A DNA stretch of 27,122 bases from an uncultured Myxococcales bacterium (GCA_964602645.1 CAZRSD010000001.1:1-27122), one strand, 5' to 3'; positions 7,498 to 27,122 are shown, counted from the first letter of the stretch. Numbers and translations: made by a program. The notes: generated by a model not told the origin, from the sequence alone.

Positions 7498-8003
7498 GCT
7501 TTTGTCCCGGCCTGCAAATCACCCTGGAGCATGTTTTTGAGAGTGCTACAGGCATCCCCTTCGTGTGGAGCGATGAGCCTATTAAGGTGATGCAAAAGCC
7601 TTATGGTGTGTTGGCGCTCGGTCAAAGCATCACGCTCGGAAGGGACTCTAGCCGATACACCTTCAGCCATAGTGATACGACCATCGATATCATCGGGCAC
7701 CGCGAGCTCACCATCAACGTACAGGTGTTTTCGCGACAGGCGCGTGGCGATTGCTCAGCGCGAGCATTGATCGAAAAAGCACGCCTATGCTTGGCCAATC
7801 CCGTCCATCGCGATGAGTTACGCAGCGCAGGTCTTGTATTTGTGGAAAATCATCCCATCGCCGATCTCGATTTCACCTTCCAGAATCGTAAAGAGAACCG
7901 TAGTGCCTTCGATGTGGTGTTTCGGCTCGTGCTGCAAGAACACGTTTCAACCAACAAAATTACCTATTTCGATTCCATTGCCGTCAGCGAGAATTTCCTA
8001 TGA
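7494..8003 (+). CDS. Neck / tail terminator protein
   Basis: Immediately before the sheath gene; KPY...GRD...ELTINVQVF...ENRSAFDVVF pattern of myophage neck terminators. Confidence 0.7.
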   Translation: MSFCPGLQITLEHVFESATGIPFVWSDEPIKVMQKPYGVLALGQSITLGRDSSRYTFSHSDTTIDIIGHRELTINVQVFSRQARGDCSARALIEKARLCLANPVHRDELRSAGLVFVENHPIADLDFTFQNRKENRSAFDVVFRLVLQEHVSTNKITYFDSIAVSENFL

Positions 8004-9130
8004 GCATAGACAGCATTGTTAACGTTACCATAACGTCGCAAAGCCTGCATATGTCACAGGCTGGCTTTGGCACGCCATTGATAATCGCAGAGCATGACTA
8101 TTGGACAGAGCGGGTAAAAAGCTTCAGCGATTTATCGGAGCTCACCTTCGTTCCTAAAAAGCCCGCTGAAACTGCGCCGACTAATGTTGCAAGAACTGTT
8201 ATGACTACCGATTCTGGTGCGCCTGCTGTTCCAAAGAAAGAACCGCAACCACAATTGATACCAAAAGATTCTGCGCTCTATCTCACGGCGCAAGCACTGA
8301 TATCGCAGACGCCGCGGGTGCCTAAATTCAAAGTTGGTCTGCGAGAAAAAACTGAAAGCGTCGCGGATGCGTTAGACAAGATTTTACTCGACGATAAAGA
8401 CGGTGATTTTTACGGCATCCTTTTGGCGGCTGATTATGGAGATGATCACGCAAAATATATCGCGGACGTTCAATCATTAATATCGACCCTCAAGGATAAG
8501 CGACTCTTGGCCGGCATTGATGTCACCGAAAAACAGTTGGCGGCATTTCCGGAAAAGGGCATGACTAGTGGCCGTCTGTTTTATATCTACAAAGAAGATG
8601 GCGCTGATTTTCCCGCCGCTGCCTGGATGGGCAAGATGTTGCCTGAGGCACCTGGTTCAACGACGTGGGCTTTCAAAGAACTGAGGGACATCACCAAGTC
8701 AAAGTTGAACACCACGACGATCGACACGCTTAAAAAGCGCAATATCAACCGACACCTCTACATCAACAACAAGGGCGTGACCTTGGATGGCAAGGTGTCA
8801 GCCGATGAATATATCGATATTGTGCACGGCATCGATTGGCTTCACGTACGCATCCAAGAGCGGATATTTCGCTTGTTGATGCTCAATGGCAAGATTCCAT
8901 ATACGTTAAAAGGTATCGATTTGGTTCGTTCGGAACTTCTTGCCCAACTCAAAGACGCGGTAAGGCGAGGGCTCTTAGCCGAAGATCCAGAGCCAACGGT
9001 GAGCATACCGGATATTGACTCAATTCCCATTGAGAAAAAAGAGAGCCGCATATTGCCCGACGTGAAGTTTAGCGCCCGCTTAGCGGGTGCCATCCATGCA
9101 ATTGAGATTCGCGGAACCGTTACGAATTAG
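8000..9130 (+). CDS. Contractile tail sheath protein, DUF3383 family
   Basis: MSIDSIVNVTI, GFGTPLII, PGSTTWAFKEL, EYIDIVHGIDWL, KIPYTLKGID, ARLAGAIHAIEIRGTV. Confidence 0.93.
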   Translation: MSIDSIVNVTITSQSLHMSQAGFGTPLIIAEHDYWTERVKSFSDLSELTFVPKKPAETAPTNVARTVMTTDSGAPAVPKKEPQPQLIPKDSALYLTAQALISQTPRVPKFKVGLREKTESVADALDKILLDDKDGDFYGILLAADYGDDHAKYIADVQSLISTLKDKRLLAGIDVTEKQLAAFPEKGMTSGRLFYIYKEDGADFPAAAWMGKMLPEAPGSTTWAFKELRDITKSKLNTTTIDTLKKRNINRHLYINNKGVTLDGKVSADEYIDIVHGIDWLHVRIQERIFRLLMLNGKIPYTLKGIDLVRSELLAQLKDAVRRGLLAEDPEPTVSIPDIDSIPIEKKESRILPDVKFSARLAGAIHAIEIRGTVTN

Positions 9131-18711: not shown

Positions 18712-21429
18712 ATGAACTATATCGATCTGCTCATCGTAATCGTCTATCTATTGGTGACACTTGCAGCAGGTCTAGTGTTCGGCAGAAAAACCTGCACCAT
18801 TGAAGACTACGCGATCGGTCGTCGAGAATTTTCGAATTCGGTATTAGCAGCTGCAATTTGCGCCACCATGATTTCAGCAAGCGGCACATCCGGGCTCACA
18901 GGAAAAATTTACTCATTTGGCGCCATTTTTGTTGCTTCTTATTTTGGCGTCGTGGTCGCTAGATTATTAGTAGCTTTTGTCGTCGCGCCAAAAATGAATC
19001 CGTTCTTAGGCATGATTTCCTGTGGCGATGTTCTCGAAAAATTATATGGCCGTGAAGCCAAAATAATGATGGGACTCCTCACCCTCTTAGAAGGCTCATT
19101 GCTTGCAGGCGCCCAAGTGCTCGCTACTTACCAAGCTGGCCAATATTTTTTTGGTTTTTCTAAAGAGATCGGCGCGATCACCACGTCGGGGATCATCATT
19201 CTTTATTGCTTCAGAGGAGGCATCAGAGCGATCACCGCCACCGACGTATTCCAGTTTGTCATGATGGTTGTCGCGATCCCTATCGTTGCAGCAATTGCCA
19301 TTGAACATATTGGCGGCTTTTCAACCTTTGTAACCGCCTTAGAAGAGCGCCGTCTGCTCACAGATTCTTTGACACATGGCGACGCGCTCAAGCATATCAC
19401 TATATTCGTGTCATTGGCCTTAACCTGCGTCATCCCGCTCACGGTACAACGCATGCTCATGGCTAAAAATACCGAGCAAATTAGAAAATCCTATCTACTG
19501 AGCGGCCTCATCACTTTTCTCTTCTACTGCGCAATAGGCATCGTGGGACTCGCAGCACCGCTATTGTTGCCCAACATCGACCCTAATCTATCATTACCTG
19601 CTTTGATCAACGAGCTGCTGCCCATTGGGATTCGTGGTCTCGTCATCGCAGGGCTGCTTTCGATATTCATGTCCAGCTCAGATGCTGACATGAATATCAG
19701 CTCAGTTGCATTAACACACGACATTCTAAAACCATTGTTCCGCGAGAAATTCAACGACAAATTATTGTTCTTCTTTACCAGGCTCACCTTCGTGATCGGC
19801 GGGATAATCTCTACCATTGTCGCGCTCTACTATTCCAACGCGCTCGACATCCTCTTCCTCGTCATGGTGATATGTAATTCGGTTTATTTCCCCGGTCTTT
19901 TTCTGGGCATTCTTGGCCTTAGAGCAACGACAAGAGGTTTTTGGAGTGGCGCTATTATGGGGGCAACAATAGCGCTAGTGCTTTGCCTTATATTCAAAGT
20001 GTTTCCTCTCTACGCCATGATGATAGCGATAGCCGCCAATTCTTCGGTGCTGGTGTTATCTCACGTACGTCGATCGAGCACATCACTACCCTCATTCCTT
20101 AAACTCACCCAGCTCCTTTTGGGTTGGATGAAAAATTTATTATCCCATCAAAATACATTTTTTGAGCTCAAGAAAAGCAGCTTTGCCGTTAGTGGCGTCG
20201 GATATAATGATGTCTTTTCTACGCTGGTGCTCATAAATTCCGTGTTCCCATTTTTCTTTAAAGCTCTCGATTTCACCCCATTGCCGCTGAGCCTACTGAT
20301 TTGCAATGTCATCTCTGGAGTCATGGCTTCACTAATCTTATTAAGACAGGCCTTAGGAGCCTATAAATTTCTCATGCCGATTTTTTGGCAGTTGATGACG
20401 CTGACGTCACTCTCGCTGCAGACTGTCATGCTCTTATCCTATAGTGGTTTTGATGCTGTGTGGATTCTGGATCTTGCCGTCGTAGTCGCTCTCTTAATGA
20501 CGATATCGAGAAAACAAGAATTGGTAATTCATGCAATCGCTGCAGCCATCATGGTGCCGGTACTTATTCATCTGGCGCCGTATTCACCGAATTTGGATTT
20601 GAATAGCTACCAATATTGGTCCTTCTTTCTACACGCTGCAGCGTTGGTCATTTGTCTCAAGATTTTTAGAAATCGAGATATCGCAGCCTACCGCTTCATG
20701 ACGGGCAAGTTTGCCCATGAAACAAGTCGATCGATGACGTCATATTCAACATCGGCGCATGTATTAAACAAATATTTACCTGATCTAATTGAAGCTTATA
20801 AAAGCAATAACAATAATGCGAGGAACATTTCACGTGACGACCTGGTAAACATTTCCAACATCCCCAAGCAACTATTGGAGACCAGTGCCCGCACATGGAA
20901 AAACCTAAAGGGCTTGCTTAGCTGGATGGAATTGGAATTCGACGAGCCTCAGGCAGAAACTTATTCCATCAAAGACACCATCAATTCCGCGATAAATGAC
21001 AACTCAATCTCTCCAGATTTCAGGAAAAAAATTCACATAAAAGATTCAGTAGATTTTTATTACTTTGGTGACAACACTCAAATCACCCAAGTGATAATAA
21101 ACATGCTTGAAAATGCCATGCATGCGATGAATAAAAACCCAAAAGCACAAGTAACTATATGGACTTCAGGACACAGCCTTTTCATAGAAGACAATGGTCA
21201 CGGAATCGAAAAGAACGACCTACCAAGAATATTTGATGACCTTTTCTCAACCAAAGGAACAACCGGACAGGGTTTGGCTTTCTCTAAGCTGGTGATGGAA
21301 AAACATCATGGAGATATCTCGTGTGATTCTAAGAAAGGCCATTTCACCAGATTTGCATTAAATTTCCCCGACATTTCCGACAGAACCAGAGGTCTTGAAC
21401 ATGCAGTCAACGGCTCCCGCATTCTTTAA
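18712..21429 (+). CDS. Hybrid sensor: sodium:solute symporter (SLC5/PutP-like) + CqsS/LqsS-like 6-TM domain + histidine kinase
   Basis: SSS motifs EDYAIGRR, ATMISA, GGIRAITATDVFQF, SIFMSSSD (about aa 1-450); second hydrophobic block (about aa 495-655); H-box FAHET (His669), N-box QVIINMLENA, G1 IEDNGHGI, F-box IFDDLFSTK, G2 GQGLAFSK. Confidence 0.9.
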   Translation: MNYIDLLIVIVYLLVTLAAGLVFGRKTCTIEDYAIGRREFSNSVLAAAICATMISASGTSGLTGKIYSFGAIFVASYFGVVVARLLVAFVVAPKMNPFLGMISCGDVLEKLYGREAKIMMGLLTLLEGSLLAGAQVLATYQAGQYFFGFSKEIGAITTSGIIILYCFRGGIRAITATDVFQFVMMVVAIPIVAAIAIEHIGGFSTFVTALEERRLLTDSLTHGDALKHITIFVSLALTCVIPLTVQRMLMAKNTEQIRKSYLLSGLITFLFYCAIGIVGLAAPLLLPNIDPNLSLPALINELLPIGIRGLVIAGLLSIFMSSSDADMNISSVALTHDILKPLFREKFNDKLLFFFTRLTFVIGGIISTIVALYYSNALDILFLVMVICNSVYFPGLFLGILGLRATTRGFWSGAIMGATIALVLCLIFKVFPLYAMMIAIAANSSVLVLSHVRRSSTSLPSFLKLTQLLLGWMKNLLSHQNTFFELKKSSFAVSGVGYNDVFSTLVLINSVFPFFFKALDFTPLPLSLLICNVISGVMASLILLRQALGAYKFLMPIFWQLMTLTSLSLQTVMLLSYSGFDAVWILDLAVVVALLMTISRKQELVIHAIAAAIMVPVLIHLAPYSPNLDLNSYQYWSFFLHAAALVICLKIFRNRDIAAYRFMTGKFAHETSRSMTSYSTSAHVLNKYLPDLIEAYKSNNNNARNISRDDLVNISNIPKQLLETSARTWKNLKGLLSWMELEFDEPQAETYSIKDTINSAINDNSISPDFRKKIHIKDSVDFYYFGDNTQITQVIINMLENAMHAMNKNPKAQVTIWTSGHSLFIEDNGHGIEKNDLPRIFDDLFSTKGTTGQGLAFSKLVMEKHHGDISCDSKKGHFTRFALNFPDISDRTRGLEHAVNGSRIL

Positions 21430-22285
21430 ACCAACAACGATATTGCTCGTTGATGATGACGAACGCTACATAAAAAACATTGCAACCTTGATCGCTCATC
21501 GTTGCAAGCCCGTTGTTGTTACGCCTAATGATTTGGACAAATATCGCTGTTCAGAGCTCTTCACCGTGCTCGAGACATTTTCGAAGAACAACCAATCGTT
21601 ATCCATAACCTCAGTGATGAATTTTTTTTCAACGCATAGAAACTCATGGCCGGTATCAACGATAGTGATTGATTACGATATGGCACCGAAAGACGGCCTG
21701 AGTATTCTCAGAGAATTTAAGAGCTCATTTATTCAGAAAATTCTTATCTCAAATTTTTTGCAAGAAGAAATATCTCGCGACGCCATTAATCAAGGCGTGA
21801 TTGACTTTTATCTACCAAAAATGGACCCTCTTTTTATCGACAAATTAGCGGAAACAGTCGCGATGGCCCAGCACCGGTTTTTCTACAAACTGTCGGCTAT
21901 CGTGCCCGATTTCTTTTCTCATGATAATCCACTCCGCGAACCACAGCTGTACAAGGTTTTTAAAACCATCCAGTCGGAATATGACGCTGAATACTATGAA
22001 TCGCACGACCATCTCAGGCGTTTCACGTTCTTTAATGGCAACGGCAGCGCAAAGGCAACGCTTCACATCTGGCCAGAAGCCCATATTGATGAGTTGGTTC
22101 ACAGCATCCCGGCTGAGTCAGCACCACAAGAAGTGCGTGAACTCATCCTCTCAGGTAAGACGATGCCCATATTTGTCGACGATATGATTCCTGACGGTAA
22201 GGAATGGCACAAGTATCTGCAACCAGCAAATTTACTCAACGGTAGTAAAAAATACGTCTATTCGATTTGTGGAGCTGAGCTATGA
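21401..22285 (+). CDS. LqsR-like response regulator (receiver with insertion plus non-HTH output domain)
   Basis: FFKPTTILLVDDD, long insertion, STIVIDYDMAPKDG (phospho-Asp), QKILIS, AINQGVIDFYLPK, and C-terminal GKTMPIF...WHKYLQPAN...KYVYS parallel my recollection of Legionella LqsR. RBS AGAGG before ATG 21401. Confidence 0.8.
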   Translation: MQSTAPAFFKPTTILLVDDDERYIKNIATLIAHRCKPVVVTPNDLDKYRCSELFTVLETFSKNNQSLSITSVMNFFSTHRNSWPVSTIVIDYDMAPKDGLSILREFKSSFIQKILISNFLQEEISRDAINQGVIDFYLPKMDPLFIDKLAETVAMAQHRFFYKLSAIVPDFFSHDNPLREPQLYKVFKTIQSEYDAEYYESHDHLRRFTFFNGNGSAKATLHIWPEAHIDELVHSIPAESAPQEVRELILSGKTMPIFVDDMIPDGKEWHKYLQPANLLNGSKKYVYSICGAEL

Positions 22286-23025
22286 ACTTCGAGAGCGCCT
22301 ATAAGGGAATCAAACCAAGCGAGATCGACAATGACACACCGGAAATCGCAGACAGATACTTAAATCGAAAGCCAAGTGGCACAGGATATTTGGCCTATCG
22401 CGATATACCGATGCTCATTCAAAAATATGTAAAAGGCGAACGAGCGTTAGATTTCGGCTGTGGAACTGGCTACTCCACGCGCCTTATAAGGGAAATGAAT
22501 TTTGACGTCGTTGGCGTCGACATTAGTTTAAATATGCTTTTGCGCGCGCTTTCGATCAAAGATGGCATCCCATTTGCTCATATCAAACATGGCGAAATAA
22601 ATGCCAAGGATAATTCATTCGATTTTGTCCATTCATCCTTAGTTTTCTTCGACATGCCAACGATTCATATGGTAAGAGAAGCACAACTAGAAATTAGCCG
22701 CATACTCAAACCCGGCGGAATCTTTATCGCCGTCGTCGGCAGTGAAAACCTGCACCTTAACAATTGGTTGACCGTGACGACCGATGTTGCTCGGAACAAG
22801 ACAATAAAATCGGGTGAAGTGTATAGGCTCGATACTCCCCATGCTGGCCTCTACTTCTACGACTATTACTATTCCGACGACGATTACCGAACGACATTCG
22901 ATCAGGTTGGTCTAGAACTCTTGGAAACCCACTACCCACTTGGCCGAGACTCAGATGGATTTCCATGGCAAACCGAAAAGTCGGTGTCAGCGCAAACCAT
23001 TTATATCTGCAGAAAACGCCACTAA
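22282..23025 (+). CDS. Class I SAM-dependent methyltransferase (small-molecule type)
   Basis: Motif I ALDFGCGTG, VVGVDISLNML, FDFV, ILKPGGIF; no DNA-MTase DPPY/NPPY or PC motif; ATGA-coupled to the response regulator. Confidence 0.9.
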   Translation: MNFESAYKGIKPSEIDNDTPEIADRYLNRKPSGTGYLAYRDIPMLIQKYVKGERALDFGCGTGYSTRLIREMNFDVVGVDISLNMLLRALSIKDGIPFAHIKHGEINAKDNSFDFVHSSLVFFDMPTIHMVREAQLEISRILKPGGIFIAVVGSENLHLNNWLTVTTDVARNKTIKSGEVYRLDTPHAGLYFYDYYYSDDDYRTTFDQVGLELLETHYPLGRDSDGFPWQTEKSVSAQTIYICRKRH

Positions 23026-23642
23026 GCTCGTCGATGCCAGATGATCTTTGCTATGGTGGGCGATACAATTCGCTCTAAATCGGTCGATGCATTCGATCTG
23101 GCAAACACGTTGTCGTCGTAAAAGTGCAGCCATCTCGGTGCAAATTTTCCCGAAGAAAGCTTGATCATAAATAAGTTTGCCCCATCGTGCGTGCCTTCCT
23201 TGCATATGCTGTCAAACAGAACCATGGTTCCCAAGACCAAATCACCACGACCGAATAGCGGCGTCATAGCGTTGTCCTCGATCTCGACGGTTATCGGATT
23301 ACCATTGGTCTTTTGGCAGGATTTTATGAAATGGTCGATGATGTCATCGAAGTGTTTCACGTTGCATGCGTCTTGCAAATTGAAAGTTGGCCCGGTCCCC
23401 ATCCCAAATATCAACCAATCATGATTAATAAAAACACCGTCTCTGCAAAACGACTCGACGAGCTTTGCGCAACCTTCGCTTCTGGGCACTACGCCAAGTT
23501 CCCAAGTTTTGAGAGATTGCAACGATATTTCATGTCGTCTACAGAATTCTTCCTGGTTTAGTCCCGATAAAACTCGACAGGCTTTGATTCGCTGCCCTAT
23601 CTTCTTGCCATCAAACTTAGCTATTTCATTAGACTCGATCAT
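23022..23642 (-). CDS. CI-like repressor: XRE HTH plus degenerate S24-like domain
   Basis: IGQRIKACRVLSGLNQEEFCRRHEISLQSLKTWELG, DWLIFGMG linker, EIEDNAMTPLFGRGDLVLG. ATG 23642 has a GAGG RBS; the ORF track starts at TTG 23678. Confidence 0.8.
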   Translation of the reverse strand: MIESNEIAKFDGKKIGQRIKACRVLSGLNQEEFCRRHEISLQSLKTWELGVVPRSEGCAKLVESFCRDGVFINHDWLIFGMGTGPTFNLQDACNVKHFDDIIDHFIKSCQKTNGNPITVEIEDNAMTPLFGRGDLVLGTMVLFDSICKEGTHDGANLFMIKLSSGKFAPRWLHFYDDNVFARSNASTDLERIVSPTIAKIIWHRRA

Positions 23643-23712
23643 CTCGTTCCCTCGGTAACTCGTTTTCTTGGTTCTCAAAATTCTTTGATGATTTTTTATA
23701 GTTCACGCTGGA

Positions 23713-23763
23713 CATAAACCATAAGTTCATCTAAAAATTTTATCATAAACTACCGATTCATCT
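23713..23763. promoter_or_regulatory. Two 17-bp pseudo-palindromic operators in the divergent switch region
   Basis: ATAAACcataaGTTCAT (23714-23730) and ATAAACtaccgATTCAT (23745-23761); also direct repeats CATAAAC-N6-TTCATCT spaced 31 bp apart. Confidence 0.65.
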
Positions 23764-23799
23764 TAAACTGTAAATGTCGGGTGTCGATTATTCCAGTTT

Positions 23800-24906
23800 T
23801 TGATTAAGTCTCGGTCGAAAAATTGGGAACCCATCTTGTCTAATAAATGGATATTGAGCGCTACCGAAATCGAAACATTCGAATTATGTCGAAGGAAGTG
23901 GGCCTACCAATATCTTGATGAGATCAAAACACCTCCATCGAAAGCCGCAAGGTTTGGTTCGGCAGTACACAGTTTTTTACAGAATCATCTTACTGGTAAT
24001 GCGATTGACTATCAAACCGCCGAAGGCCGAGTAATTTTTCCTGGCCTTGGTTTTTTACCAAAACGCCTAGCACATGAAAATGTTGAGCGTCCAATCTTTT
24101 TTTCTAAGCATGGTCTCATGTTTCGCGGCTACATTGATTTTGTGGAGCAGATCGATGCAACAACCTTTTTGATCGGTGACCACAAAACTGCTTCAAATCT
24201 CAGGTATGCTCTCGCTATTCATGAACTCAAGAAAAATACGCAAGCGAACATCTACGCGCAGTGGGCATTTACAGAAAGAGCAGCTGAGTTGGTGAAACTG
24301 AGATGGGTTTATTATCGAACATCTTCTTCGCCGAAAGCCATGAGCGTCGATACCGAGCTTTCAAAAAGTGAAGCAGAAGAAAATTTTCTCAATATCGCCG
24401 ATACCGGAAATAAGATTCTCGCCATCGTAAAAGATGGCCCTCCTTCTATCAAACAACCTAGAAATAGCGCCGCCTGCTTTAAATATGGTCGATGTCATTT
24501 CTTTGATCGGTGTAGCGGCGAGGCAAGAACAACATTCACGAAGAAAAATAAATTAGAGGAGGCCCTTATGAAGCAGATTGATCATGATGTTAAGGACAAG
24601 TCATTTCATCTCTACATAGATTGTATGCCCACGAAAAATGAAGCTGCGTACGAGCGTACCATCGAGCTCTCAGAATTATTGAAACCAGTATTAACCAAAA
24701 TTCAAACAGAAAAGGAGTTGAGCCATTATCGGTTGGCGGGCTACGGGCAGCACGTCGGGCTGATCGCCAATTATCTATCCGAGCATTTGAAGAGCAACGC
24801 TTACAAAAGCGATACCGCGATTTTAAGCAGCGTAAAAACACCCGAAGGATGTGACACCCTTCAAACCCTGACAGCCGCAGCTGGACAAGTGGTGAGAGGC
24901 TTCTAA
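23800..24906 (+). CDS. PD-(D/E)XK (RecB/Cas4-like) exonuclease with Fe-S cysteines and an extra C-terminal domain
   Basis: LSATEIETFELCRRKW, FGSAVH, RGYIDFV...IGDHKT, QANIYA, CFKYGRCHFFDRC. The TTG start is uncertain. Confidence 0.87.
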   Translation: MIKSRSKNWEPILSNKWILSATEIETFELCRRKWAYQYLDEIKTPPSKAARFGSAVHSFLQNHLTGNAIDYQTAEGRVIFPGLGFLPKRLAHENVERPIFFSKHGLMFRGYIDFVEQIDATTFLIGDHKTASNLRYALAIHELKKNTQANIYAQWAFTERAAELVKLRWVYYRTSSSPKAMSVDTELSKSEAEENFLNIADTGNKILAIVKDGPPSIKQPRNSAACFKYGRCHFFDRCSGEARTTFTKKNKLEEALMKQIDHDVKDKSFHLYIDCMPTKNEAAYERTIELSELLKPVLTKIQTEKELSHYRLAGYGQHVGLIANYLSEHLKSNAYKSDTAILSSVKTPEGCDTLQTLTAAAGQVVRGF

Positions 24907-26574: not shown

Positions 26575-27122
26575 ATGACAACATCGATTATTACCGTCGC
26601 CAACCAAAAGGGAGGTGTTGCTAAAACCACTTCGGTTTGCAACCTCGCCGCTTCATACGCACTAAATGGCAACAACGTTTTGGTAGTCGATTTGGACTAC
26701 CAGTTTAACTTGACCTCGCTATTCGACGTCTCCAAGGAAGAAGCTGAAAGAAAATCAATTGCCCACGTGATTGCAGACGATGCAAAGTTAGACGAATTAA
26801 TCGTTAAAACCAAAACCGAAAATATCGATATCGTCCCCTGCACCCGAAGACTCAATGATTTGAGAGATAAAATCAGCAGTGAAGTAAATCAATTTCACTT
26901 TCTGAAGGATTTCTTAGAACACGAAGCGATCAACAACTATGAAATTGTTTTGATCGATACGCATCCGTCGATCGATCTCTTCTTCAAAGCAGCACTGGTG
27001 GCAAGCCATTACTATTTGATCCCCCTCTTTGCCGAAGCTGATTCCTGTCGAGGCCTGGCTCACCAAATCGAAGAAGCTGAAAAAGTGAGCAAGTATTTTA
27101 ATCCCATGCTCACGCTTCTAGG
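26575..27122 (+). CDS. parA: ParA/Soj-family ATPase (3' end outside the window)
   Basis: Translated by hand: MTTSIITVANQKGGVAKTTSVCNLA...VLVVDLDYQFNLT...IVLIDTHPS. RBS AAGAGG. Absent from the ORF track because it has no stop in the window. Confidence 0.93.
   Translation, partial: MTTSIITVANQKGGVAKTTSVCNLAASYALNGNNVLVVDLDYQFNLTSLFDVSKEEAERKSIAHVIADDAKLDELIVKTKTENIDIVPCTRRLNDLRDKISSEVNQFHFLKDFLEHEAINNYEIVLIDTHPSIDLFFKAALVASHYYLIPLFAEADSCRGLAHQIEEAEKVSKYFNPMLTLL

Follow-up and report, generated by a model that had tools for sequence, protein, structure and literature searches.

How could a prophage be released from repression if its repressor is not cleaved? The question is raised by a window of 27,122 nucleotides from an uncultured Myxococcales bacterium (GCA_964602645.1, CAZRSD010000001.1:1-27122), the whole stretch of DNA analysed here, in which a candidate repressor gene converges with an operon for a membrane sensor and a response regulator of the LqsR family. 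Non-cleavable prophage repressors (Gifsy, N15) and signal-controlled induction (VP882, TF-smORF modules) are already known. From sequence comparisons, we conclude that a LqsS/LqsR-type pair, rather than self-cleavage after DNA damage, probably controls the repressor. The full reading is that the phage immunity switch is a host-type module of kinase, LqsR-like regulator and helix-turn-helix (HTH) pseudo-S24 protein, in which a phospho-signal at Asp93 of the regulator alters a non-cleavable repressor; we put its probability at a little over one half.

A phage contig with a candidate immunity repressor

The contig to which the window belongs is 35,417 bp long and is probably a complete circular phage genome, because the first 16 nt of the window recur at its end. 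Its gene content is best explained by a temperate, myovirus-like, ParAB-bearing phage of 35.4 kb. Virion genes for terminase, portal, protease, capsid, sheath, tube, tape measure and baseplate were identified, together with an exonuclease, a RuvC-like pair, ParA/ParB, an AAA_25 helicase-like protein, a tyrosine recombinase and a PLD nuclease. ParB, the AAA_25 protein, the recombinase and the PLD-family nuclease lie outside the window (L036, G000:C1:26500-35417). Two toxin-antitoxin cassettes, the sensor operon and the HTH gene complete the inventory. The element may be a phage-plasmid. The ParA ORF (window 26575-27120 plus L036:76-702) encodes 208 aa, compared with 287-298 aa in related phage contigs, and may be truncated or frameshifted.

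The candidate immunity repressor, P0001, is encoded on the minus strand by a clean ORF of 206 codons (23025-23642; stop codon 23022-23024). Its ATG at 23642 is preceded by a GAGGGA Shine-Dalgarno sequence, which is also found upstream of a paralogue on host contig C72. The gene is divergent from the early genes here and in related phages, six in all. The first gene of the early operon encodes a PD-(D/E)XK exonuclease (23800-24906, plus strand; Pfam PDDEXK_1, 1e-15; phrog_1218) that occupies the same position in five related phages. The control region between the two units (23643-23799) holds two exact copies of a 20-bp repeat, CATAAAC-N6-TTCATCT, at 23713-23732 and 23744-23763, 31 bp apart. 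These are the only two matches in the window, where 0.24 would be expected by chance. The repeats are direct, not palindromic, and both copies overlap promoter-like hexamers of both divergent units, on both strands; they are candidate operators only. No clear equivalents were found in the AT-rich control regions of four related phages.

The AlphaFold2 (AF2) model of P0001, built from a 60-member alignment (A1), has a mean pLDDT of 91 and consists of three parts: a five-helix XRE domain, a long helix and a beta domain. The first (residues ~10-82; 23397-23615, minus strand) is a DNA-binding domain of the HTH_3 type, as in XRE/Cro-CI proteins. The P0001 family profile matched the 434 repressor at E 1e-6 and P22 c2 at E 1e-4, the domain superposed on the DNA-binding domains of P22 c2, 434, SinR and ImmR with Z 9-10 and rmsd 1.5-1.9 A, and PF01381 was matched by 45 of 60 relatives. 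The linker (residues 89-111; 23310-23378, minus strand) is predicted to form one long helix, based on AF2 secondary structure, and its Phe105 is conserved across the family. The C-terminal domain (residues 114-206; 23025-23303, minus strand) has the S24 beta-fold of LexA and CI: it superposed on the C-terminal domain (CTD) of Mycobacterium tuberculosis LexA with Z 10.4 and rmsd 2.4 A over 84 residues and on that of lambda CI with Z 8.8, and the lambda CI and LexA CTDs were also the best Foldseek matches.

Sequence searches with P0001 by itself did not recover this relationship. Pfam PF00717 gave no match to the single sequence even at E<=1, and single-protein Pfam and PDB sequence searches returned only weak matches to the 434 repressor HTH and no S24 domain. 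A family profile of the C-terminal domain reached lambda CI only at E 0.36. Nonetheless, the S24 ancestry of the domain is real, because its fold matches LexA/CI and 24 of 60 relatives match Peptidase_S24 (PF00717). A host paralogue on contig C90 even exceeds the Pfam S24 cut-off. Such matches support S24 homology, not membership of P0001 among active peptidases.

A protease fold without its catalytic residues

P0001 resembles lambda CI, LexA and UmuD in combining an N-terminal DNA-binding domain, a linker and a C-terminal S24 beta-fold, in being encoded divergently from an early operon, and in keeping the motif skeleton x-x-x-M...G-D and hydrophobic-basic-x-L. It departs from them at the residues used for catalysis. 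Where the serine nucleophile would be found in a G-[DN]-S-M motif, P0001 reads D-N-A-M, within I-E-D-N-A-M-T-P; Ala125 (codon GCT, 23268-23270, minus strand) is at the position of the nucleophile, and two residues before it Asp123 (23274-76, minus strand) takes the place of the Gly of LexA GDSM. The original prediction, which had read EDNAM for GDSM with the Ala codon at these very positions, was exact on this point. It had also read the VKR region as APR. That no Lys is present there was borne out, but the alignment was shifted by one residue: Arg170 (23133-23135, minus strand), and not Pro169, stands opposite the catalytic Lys, both in a profile alignment to the lambda CI CTD (K192) and in a MAFFT alignment to the VKR of the host LexA. 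P0001 thus has F-A-P-R-W-L where LexA and CI carry F-T-V-K-R-L, and the hydrophobic-K-[RK]-L pattern of the lysine general base is absent. Residues 80-116 contain no Ala-Gly or Cys-Gly cleavage site; a helix without Ala-Gly replaces the cleavage-site hairpin. With the Ser, Lys and Gly replaced and a helix in place of the hairpin, RecA-driven self-cleavage is not expected. Alignment and structure prediction against LexA and CI agree with the earlier proposal of a non-cleavable repressor: the S24 fold is retained and the catalytic residues are replaced. Since P0001 lacks both the Ser-Lys dyad and a cleavage site, its RecA-stimulated autocleavage is, as judged from its sequence, very unlikely.

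Relatives of P0001 were numerous once profiles were used. An exhaustive HMMER search of 1.84 billion representatives yielded 702 relatives at E<=1e-3 and 80 at E<=1e-10; a word-indexed search with P0001 returned the query itself alone. Column statistics were taken from 138 near-full-length homologues. The Lys column holds Arg in 121/138 and Lys in 4/138. The Ser column is unconstrained (A41/S28/L12/G12/E8 and others), and Ser and Lys occur together in only two of the 138. Asp123 and Arg170 covary (114 homologues with both, 10 with neither, 7 and 7 mixed; Fisher 5e-7, uncorrected for phylogeny), from which we infer a salt bridge that would fill the former active site. By these statistics, the P0001 group is a family of conserved pseudo-enzymes in which an Asp...Arg pair stands in for the Ser-Lys dyad. 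The idea that P0001 is a recently decayed CI was rejected, as the predominance of Arg at the Lys column and the D123/R170 covariation are family-wide patterns.

That the P0001 domain is still an autoprotease acting through non-canonical residues is extremely improbable. Ser or Thr has been retained in the nucleophile column of some relatives (C90, G001, G004:C58), which also have a Lys next after the Arg, and the C90 paralogue passes the S24 cut-off, all of which would fit residual activity. P0001 itself has Ala at the nucleophile position, Arg at the base position and no Ala-Gly site, and the Ser column varies freely throughout the family.

Automatic annotation labels these proteins merely 'XRE-family HTH'. 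A large unannotated pseudo-S24 family can be defined, whose members apparently retain the protease fold for regulation or dimerisation. A non-systematic search for a fused regulator-HTH protein showed no fusion to a receiver; the longer matches (418-1002 aa) were HTH-repeat arrays. One homologue, P0134, has a 110-residue extension that matched no family.

The loss of self-cleavage is not a reflection of a host without SOS. The host MAG (2.04 Mb) encodes a canonical LexA (Ala-Ala-Gly site, GESM, VKR; 1480-2094 of L009, G000:C114), and RecA is present. P0001 thus lacks self-cleavage despite the SOS machinery of its host, and we hypothesize that induction of the phage is independent of SOS. Legionella pneumophila is not known to have an SOS system. 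A comparable situation was considered for this host and rejected, given the canonical LexA and RecA and the Myxococcota label of the host; its RecA is closest to those of MAGs labelled Myxococcales or Myxococcota, not Legionellales. No shared palindrome (LexA box) was seen upstream of the host lexA and recA. A second, partial RecA match was observed on host contig C234. The family of the host includes genomes of 0.3-0.6 Mb, unusually small for the Myxococcota label.

Linkage of the repressor gene with a sensor operon

The operon that converges with the repressor gene begins with a sensor of 905 aa (18712-21429, plus strand), composed of a sodium/solute symporter domain (Pfam SSF, 3e-33), membrane segments and a histidine-kinase ATPase domain (HATPase_c, 3e-18). 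This symporter-kinase fusion recurs in related cassettes. The second gene (21401-22285, plus strand; 296 aa) encodes a LqsR-family response regulator, with a receiver and a GGDEF-like, non-DNA-binding output domain as in Lqs systems, and residues 50-291 match the structure of Legionella LqsR (PDB 6sy9) at E 4e-14. Its D20, D21, D93 and K142 are invariant in 12 orthologues, so the phospho-acceptor residues are intact. No LqsA/CqsA-type autoinducer synthase was apparent among the Pfam matches of the window. The last gene (22282-23025, plus strand) encodes a SAM-dependent methyltransferase (Pfam Methyltransf_11, 7e-17), which was found in six of the cassettes and is relocated in one. Its stop codon (23023-25) overlaps that of the repressor gene (23022-24), confirming the tail-to-tail arrangement first described for this locus.

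No terminator-like site was found at this convergence, and convergent ends also overlap or abut in the related phages L032 (4 nt), L033 (62 nt) and L034. Transcription of the sensor operon might therefore collide with that of the repressor gene, or produce an antisense RNA to it, and so lower repressor synthesis. The overlap of the stop codons within 23022-23025 is in keeping with such coupling in cis. As the principal explanation it is highly improbable, since the two genes stay linked in operon and divergent arrangements, where convergent transcription is impossible. Cis coupling would thus do no more than add a layer to the phage version, one to which the overlapping, terminator-less 3' ends could contribute.

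The HTH gene lies within 4 kb (<=4 kb) of a LqsR-family regulator gene at 17 of about 22 informative loci. Five gene orders were observed (with HK, RR and MT for the kinase, regulator and methyltransferase): HK>RR>MT><HTH, HK>RR><HTH, an HK>RR>HTH operon, <RR HTH> and RR><HK<HTH. A scan of genome contigs with a narrow alignment gave four loci. The host genome has three further paralogues of P0001 (26-40% identity), each adjoining a LqsR-like regulator, so that this genome has four cassettes in total. The C72 locus is a second copy of the phage module, the C18 paralogue is found in the order HK>RR><HTH beside housekeeping genes, and the C90 paralogue in the order <RR HTH> beside lipoamide dehydrogenase. 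As the three-gene module is present on host chromosomes without phage genes, the phage copy represents a version of a host module. On C72 (L002/L037, G000:C72), portal, terminase, exonuclease, HTH, methyltransferase and regulator genes make up what appears to be a second related phage module; the regulator ORF there (206 aa) lies at the contig end and lacks the N-terminal half of the receiver.

Among 20 genomes of the same family, eight have both genes, one the HTH gene only (59% complete), one the regulator only and ten neither. In 40 genomes outside the family, no regulator and no full-length HTH protein were found, with one 49-residue HTH-only match (G043). The operon order HK>RR>HTH, with HTH as the last gene, was found at three loci, including two other genera, and a distant cassette was detected in an Alphaproteobacteria-labelled MAG. 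In the latter, the HTH-pseudo-S24 gene (L007 7986-8666) matches in two frames (8001-8075 and 8105-8608) and may be frameshifted or mis-assembled. Four metagenome phage contigs encode HTH proteins 36-43% identical to P0001, with the gene flanked by the sensor cassette on one side and by the early genes or the terminase side on the other; in all, six related phages share the position between sensor cassette and early genes. In one of the phage contigs (L033, 7224-7574), an IS200-type (Y1_Tnp) transposase gene lies directly upstream of a 144-aa kinase ORF with the ATPase domain only. The sensor gene may have been interrupted by it; the genes for regulator and HTH protein are intact.

Across 14 cassettes, distances between HTH proteins and between regulators were correlated (Mantel r 0.79, p 2e-4). 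Linkage is not universal: five HTH-pseudo-S24 homologues stand alone (the P0003 locus, G007, two in G010, and Fangia), and LqsR-like regulators outnumber HTH genes 11 to 0 in G013 and 16 to 1 in G018. Both the neighbourhood and the co-divergence would also follow from plain co-inheritance of linked genes. The co-occurrence of dead-S24 repressors with the sensor operon at 17 loci, in five orders, several genera and six phages means that the link between the repressor and signalling genes is strongly supported by synteny. The proposal that the adjacent sensor/LqsR-like pair provides the input was upheld as far as conserved linkage goes; it has to be widened to a module that also resides on host chromosomes free of phage genes.

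The same observations bear on a rather unlikely alternative, in which the HTH protein is the local regulator of a passenger cassette. It would control the kinase and regulator genes and itself, with information passing from the HTH protein to the two-component system, and the lysis-lysogeny switch would lie elsewhere or be replaced by ParAB plasmid maintenance without a classical immunity repressor. Regulators are commonly encoded beside operons under their control, the <RR HTH> order of C90, G001 and G004:C58 would suit autoregulated divergent promoters, and chromosomal cassettes without phage genes exist. In the six phages, by contrast, the HTH gene faces the early or recombination genes across a shared control region and is tail-to-tail with the sensor operon. 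At the three operon loci the HTH gene comes last, a position typical of a pathway member. Finally, no second CI/Cro-type regulator was found on the whole 35.4-kb contig, leaving P0001 without a competitor as repressor.

Possible routes from signal to repressor

In the three-gene module, the HTH-pseudo-S24 protein is the sole DNA-binding component. Under the preferred reading of a phage immunity switch built from a host-type module, a signal would act at the transporter-kinase, which would phosphorylate the regulator at Asp93. The phosphorylated regulator would then alter repressor activity, either indirectly or by direct binding to the pseudo-S24 domain, whose LexA/CI fold has probably been retained so that it can dimerise and bind partners. 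The direct route, with the dead protease domain as target, would be the most economical. Occupancy of the control region at 23643-23799 would shift as a result, and with it the choice between lysogeny and lysis. It should be noted that we infer the immunity role, the direction of signalling and the contact between regulator and repressor. Complex prediction for the regulator (A6) and the HTH protein (A1) gave a score of 0.16 against a mark of 0.32, which speaks neither for nor against binding.

A more far-reaching version may be offered tentatively, although it is doubtful as a whole: the HTH-pseudo-S24 protein could be the missing DNA-binding partner of this LqsR branch, with the phosphorylated regulator docking on the dead protease domain in the place of RecA* and self-cleavage, and the phages would have made this relay, fed by a transporter-kinase, their signal-controlled lysis-lysogeny switch. 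The output domain of LqsR and PhcX does not bind DNA, and for this reason the route to gene expression in the LqsR family has been left unresolved (PMC10653808).

Repressors that are not cleaved have been described in the Gifsy-1/2/3 prophages (GfoR/GftR/GfhR) and in N15 (cI), where they are released by antirepressors (PMC3121763; PMC10432266). The phage studied here resembles these in having an uncleaved prophage repressor that needs a second factor for its inactivation. In Gifsy and N15 this role falls to a small antirepressor, itself controlled by LexA or by a different transcription factor, whereas the conserved neighbour here is a complete two-component system with a LqsR-type regulator that is also found on host chromosomes. 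A small antirepressor, possibly LexA-controlled, might still act on P0001, so that induction would depend on SOS after all and the sensor cassette would be an unrelated moron. We regard this as decidedly unlikely. Non-cleavable repressors with LexA-controlled antirepressors are common (PMC3121763; PMC10432266), the host has both LexA and RecA, and several phage ORFs without assigned function could include an antirepressor; no antirepressor-like family match was found in the phage, and this reading would not account for the linkage to LqsR-like genes that is conserved in chromosomes and phages alike and in five gene orders.

Signal-controlled prophage induction has been reported for the VqmA(Phi)-Qtip-cI system of VP882 and for TF-smORF modules (10.1101/2019.12.16.877910; PMC10432266). 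As proposed here, a phage-encoded small-molecule receptor feeds into the lysis-lysogeny repressor independently of DNA damage. In VP882, the receptor is a cytoplasmic transcription factor that induces a small antirepressor, and its cI is still autoproteolytic; in the present phage, the signal would be received by a membrane transporter-kinase and passed on by phospho-relay to a pseudo-protease repressor, and no intermediary small ORF was seen. In SinR/SinI and ImmR/ImmA, too, an XRE-type HTH is joined to a C-terminal oligomerisation domain, a possible target for a partner protein. Their C-terminal domains are unrelated to that of P0001, and no homologue was found here of either SinI, which sequesters SinR, or the metalloprotease that cleaves ImmR.

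The closest likeness on the signalling side is to LqsS/LqsT-LqsR of Legionella and PhcX of Ralstonia, in which a receiver with an unusual GGDEF-like output domain (PMC10653808, 6sy9) is paired with a membrane kinase. The lqs loci (lqsA-lqsR-hdeD-lqsS) have no HTH-S24 gene, unlike the cassettes described here with their linked HTH-pseudo-S24 gene, and the present system further differs in the fusion of the kinase to a solute symporter, the Myxococcota label of the host and its presence on a phage. A literature search returned no description of a phage-borne LqsR-family regulator, nor of one with an HTH-S24 partner. If the preferred reading is true, a phage lysis-lysogeny switch would be driven by a complete membrane two-component system and not by DNA damage, a cytoplasmic receptor or a peptide, which would add to the few routes of induction known to bypass SOS (VP882, TF-smORF modules, arbitrium). 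The conserved, co-diverging HTH neighbour is a concrete and testable output candidate for at least one branch of the family that includes Legionella LqsR and Ralstonia PhcX. A strong expansion of LqsR-like regulators, mostly without an HTH-pseudo-S24 neighbour, was also observed in two small genomes of the host's family, with 16 matches in the 1.5 Mb of G018 and 11 in the 2.2 Mb of G013.
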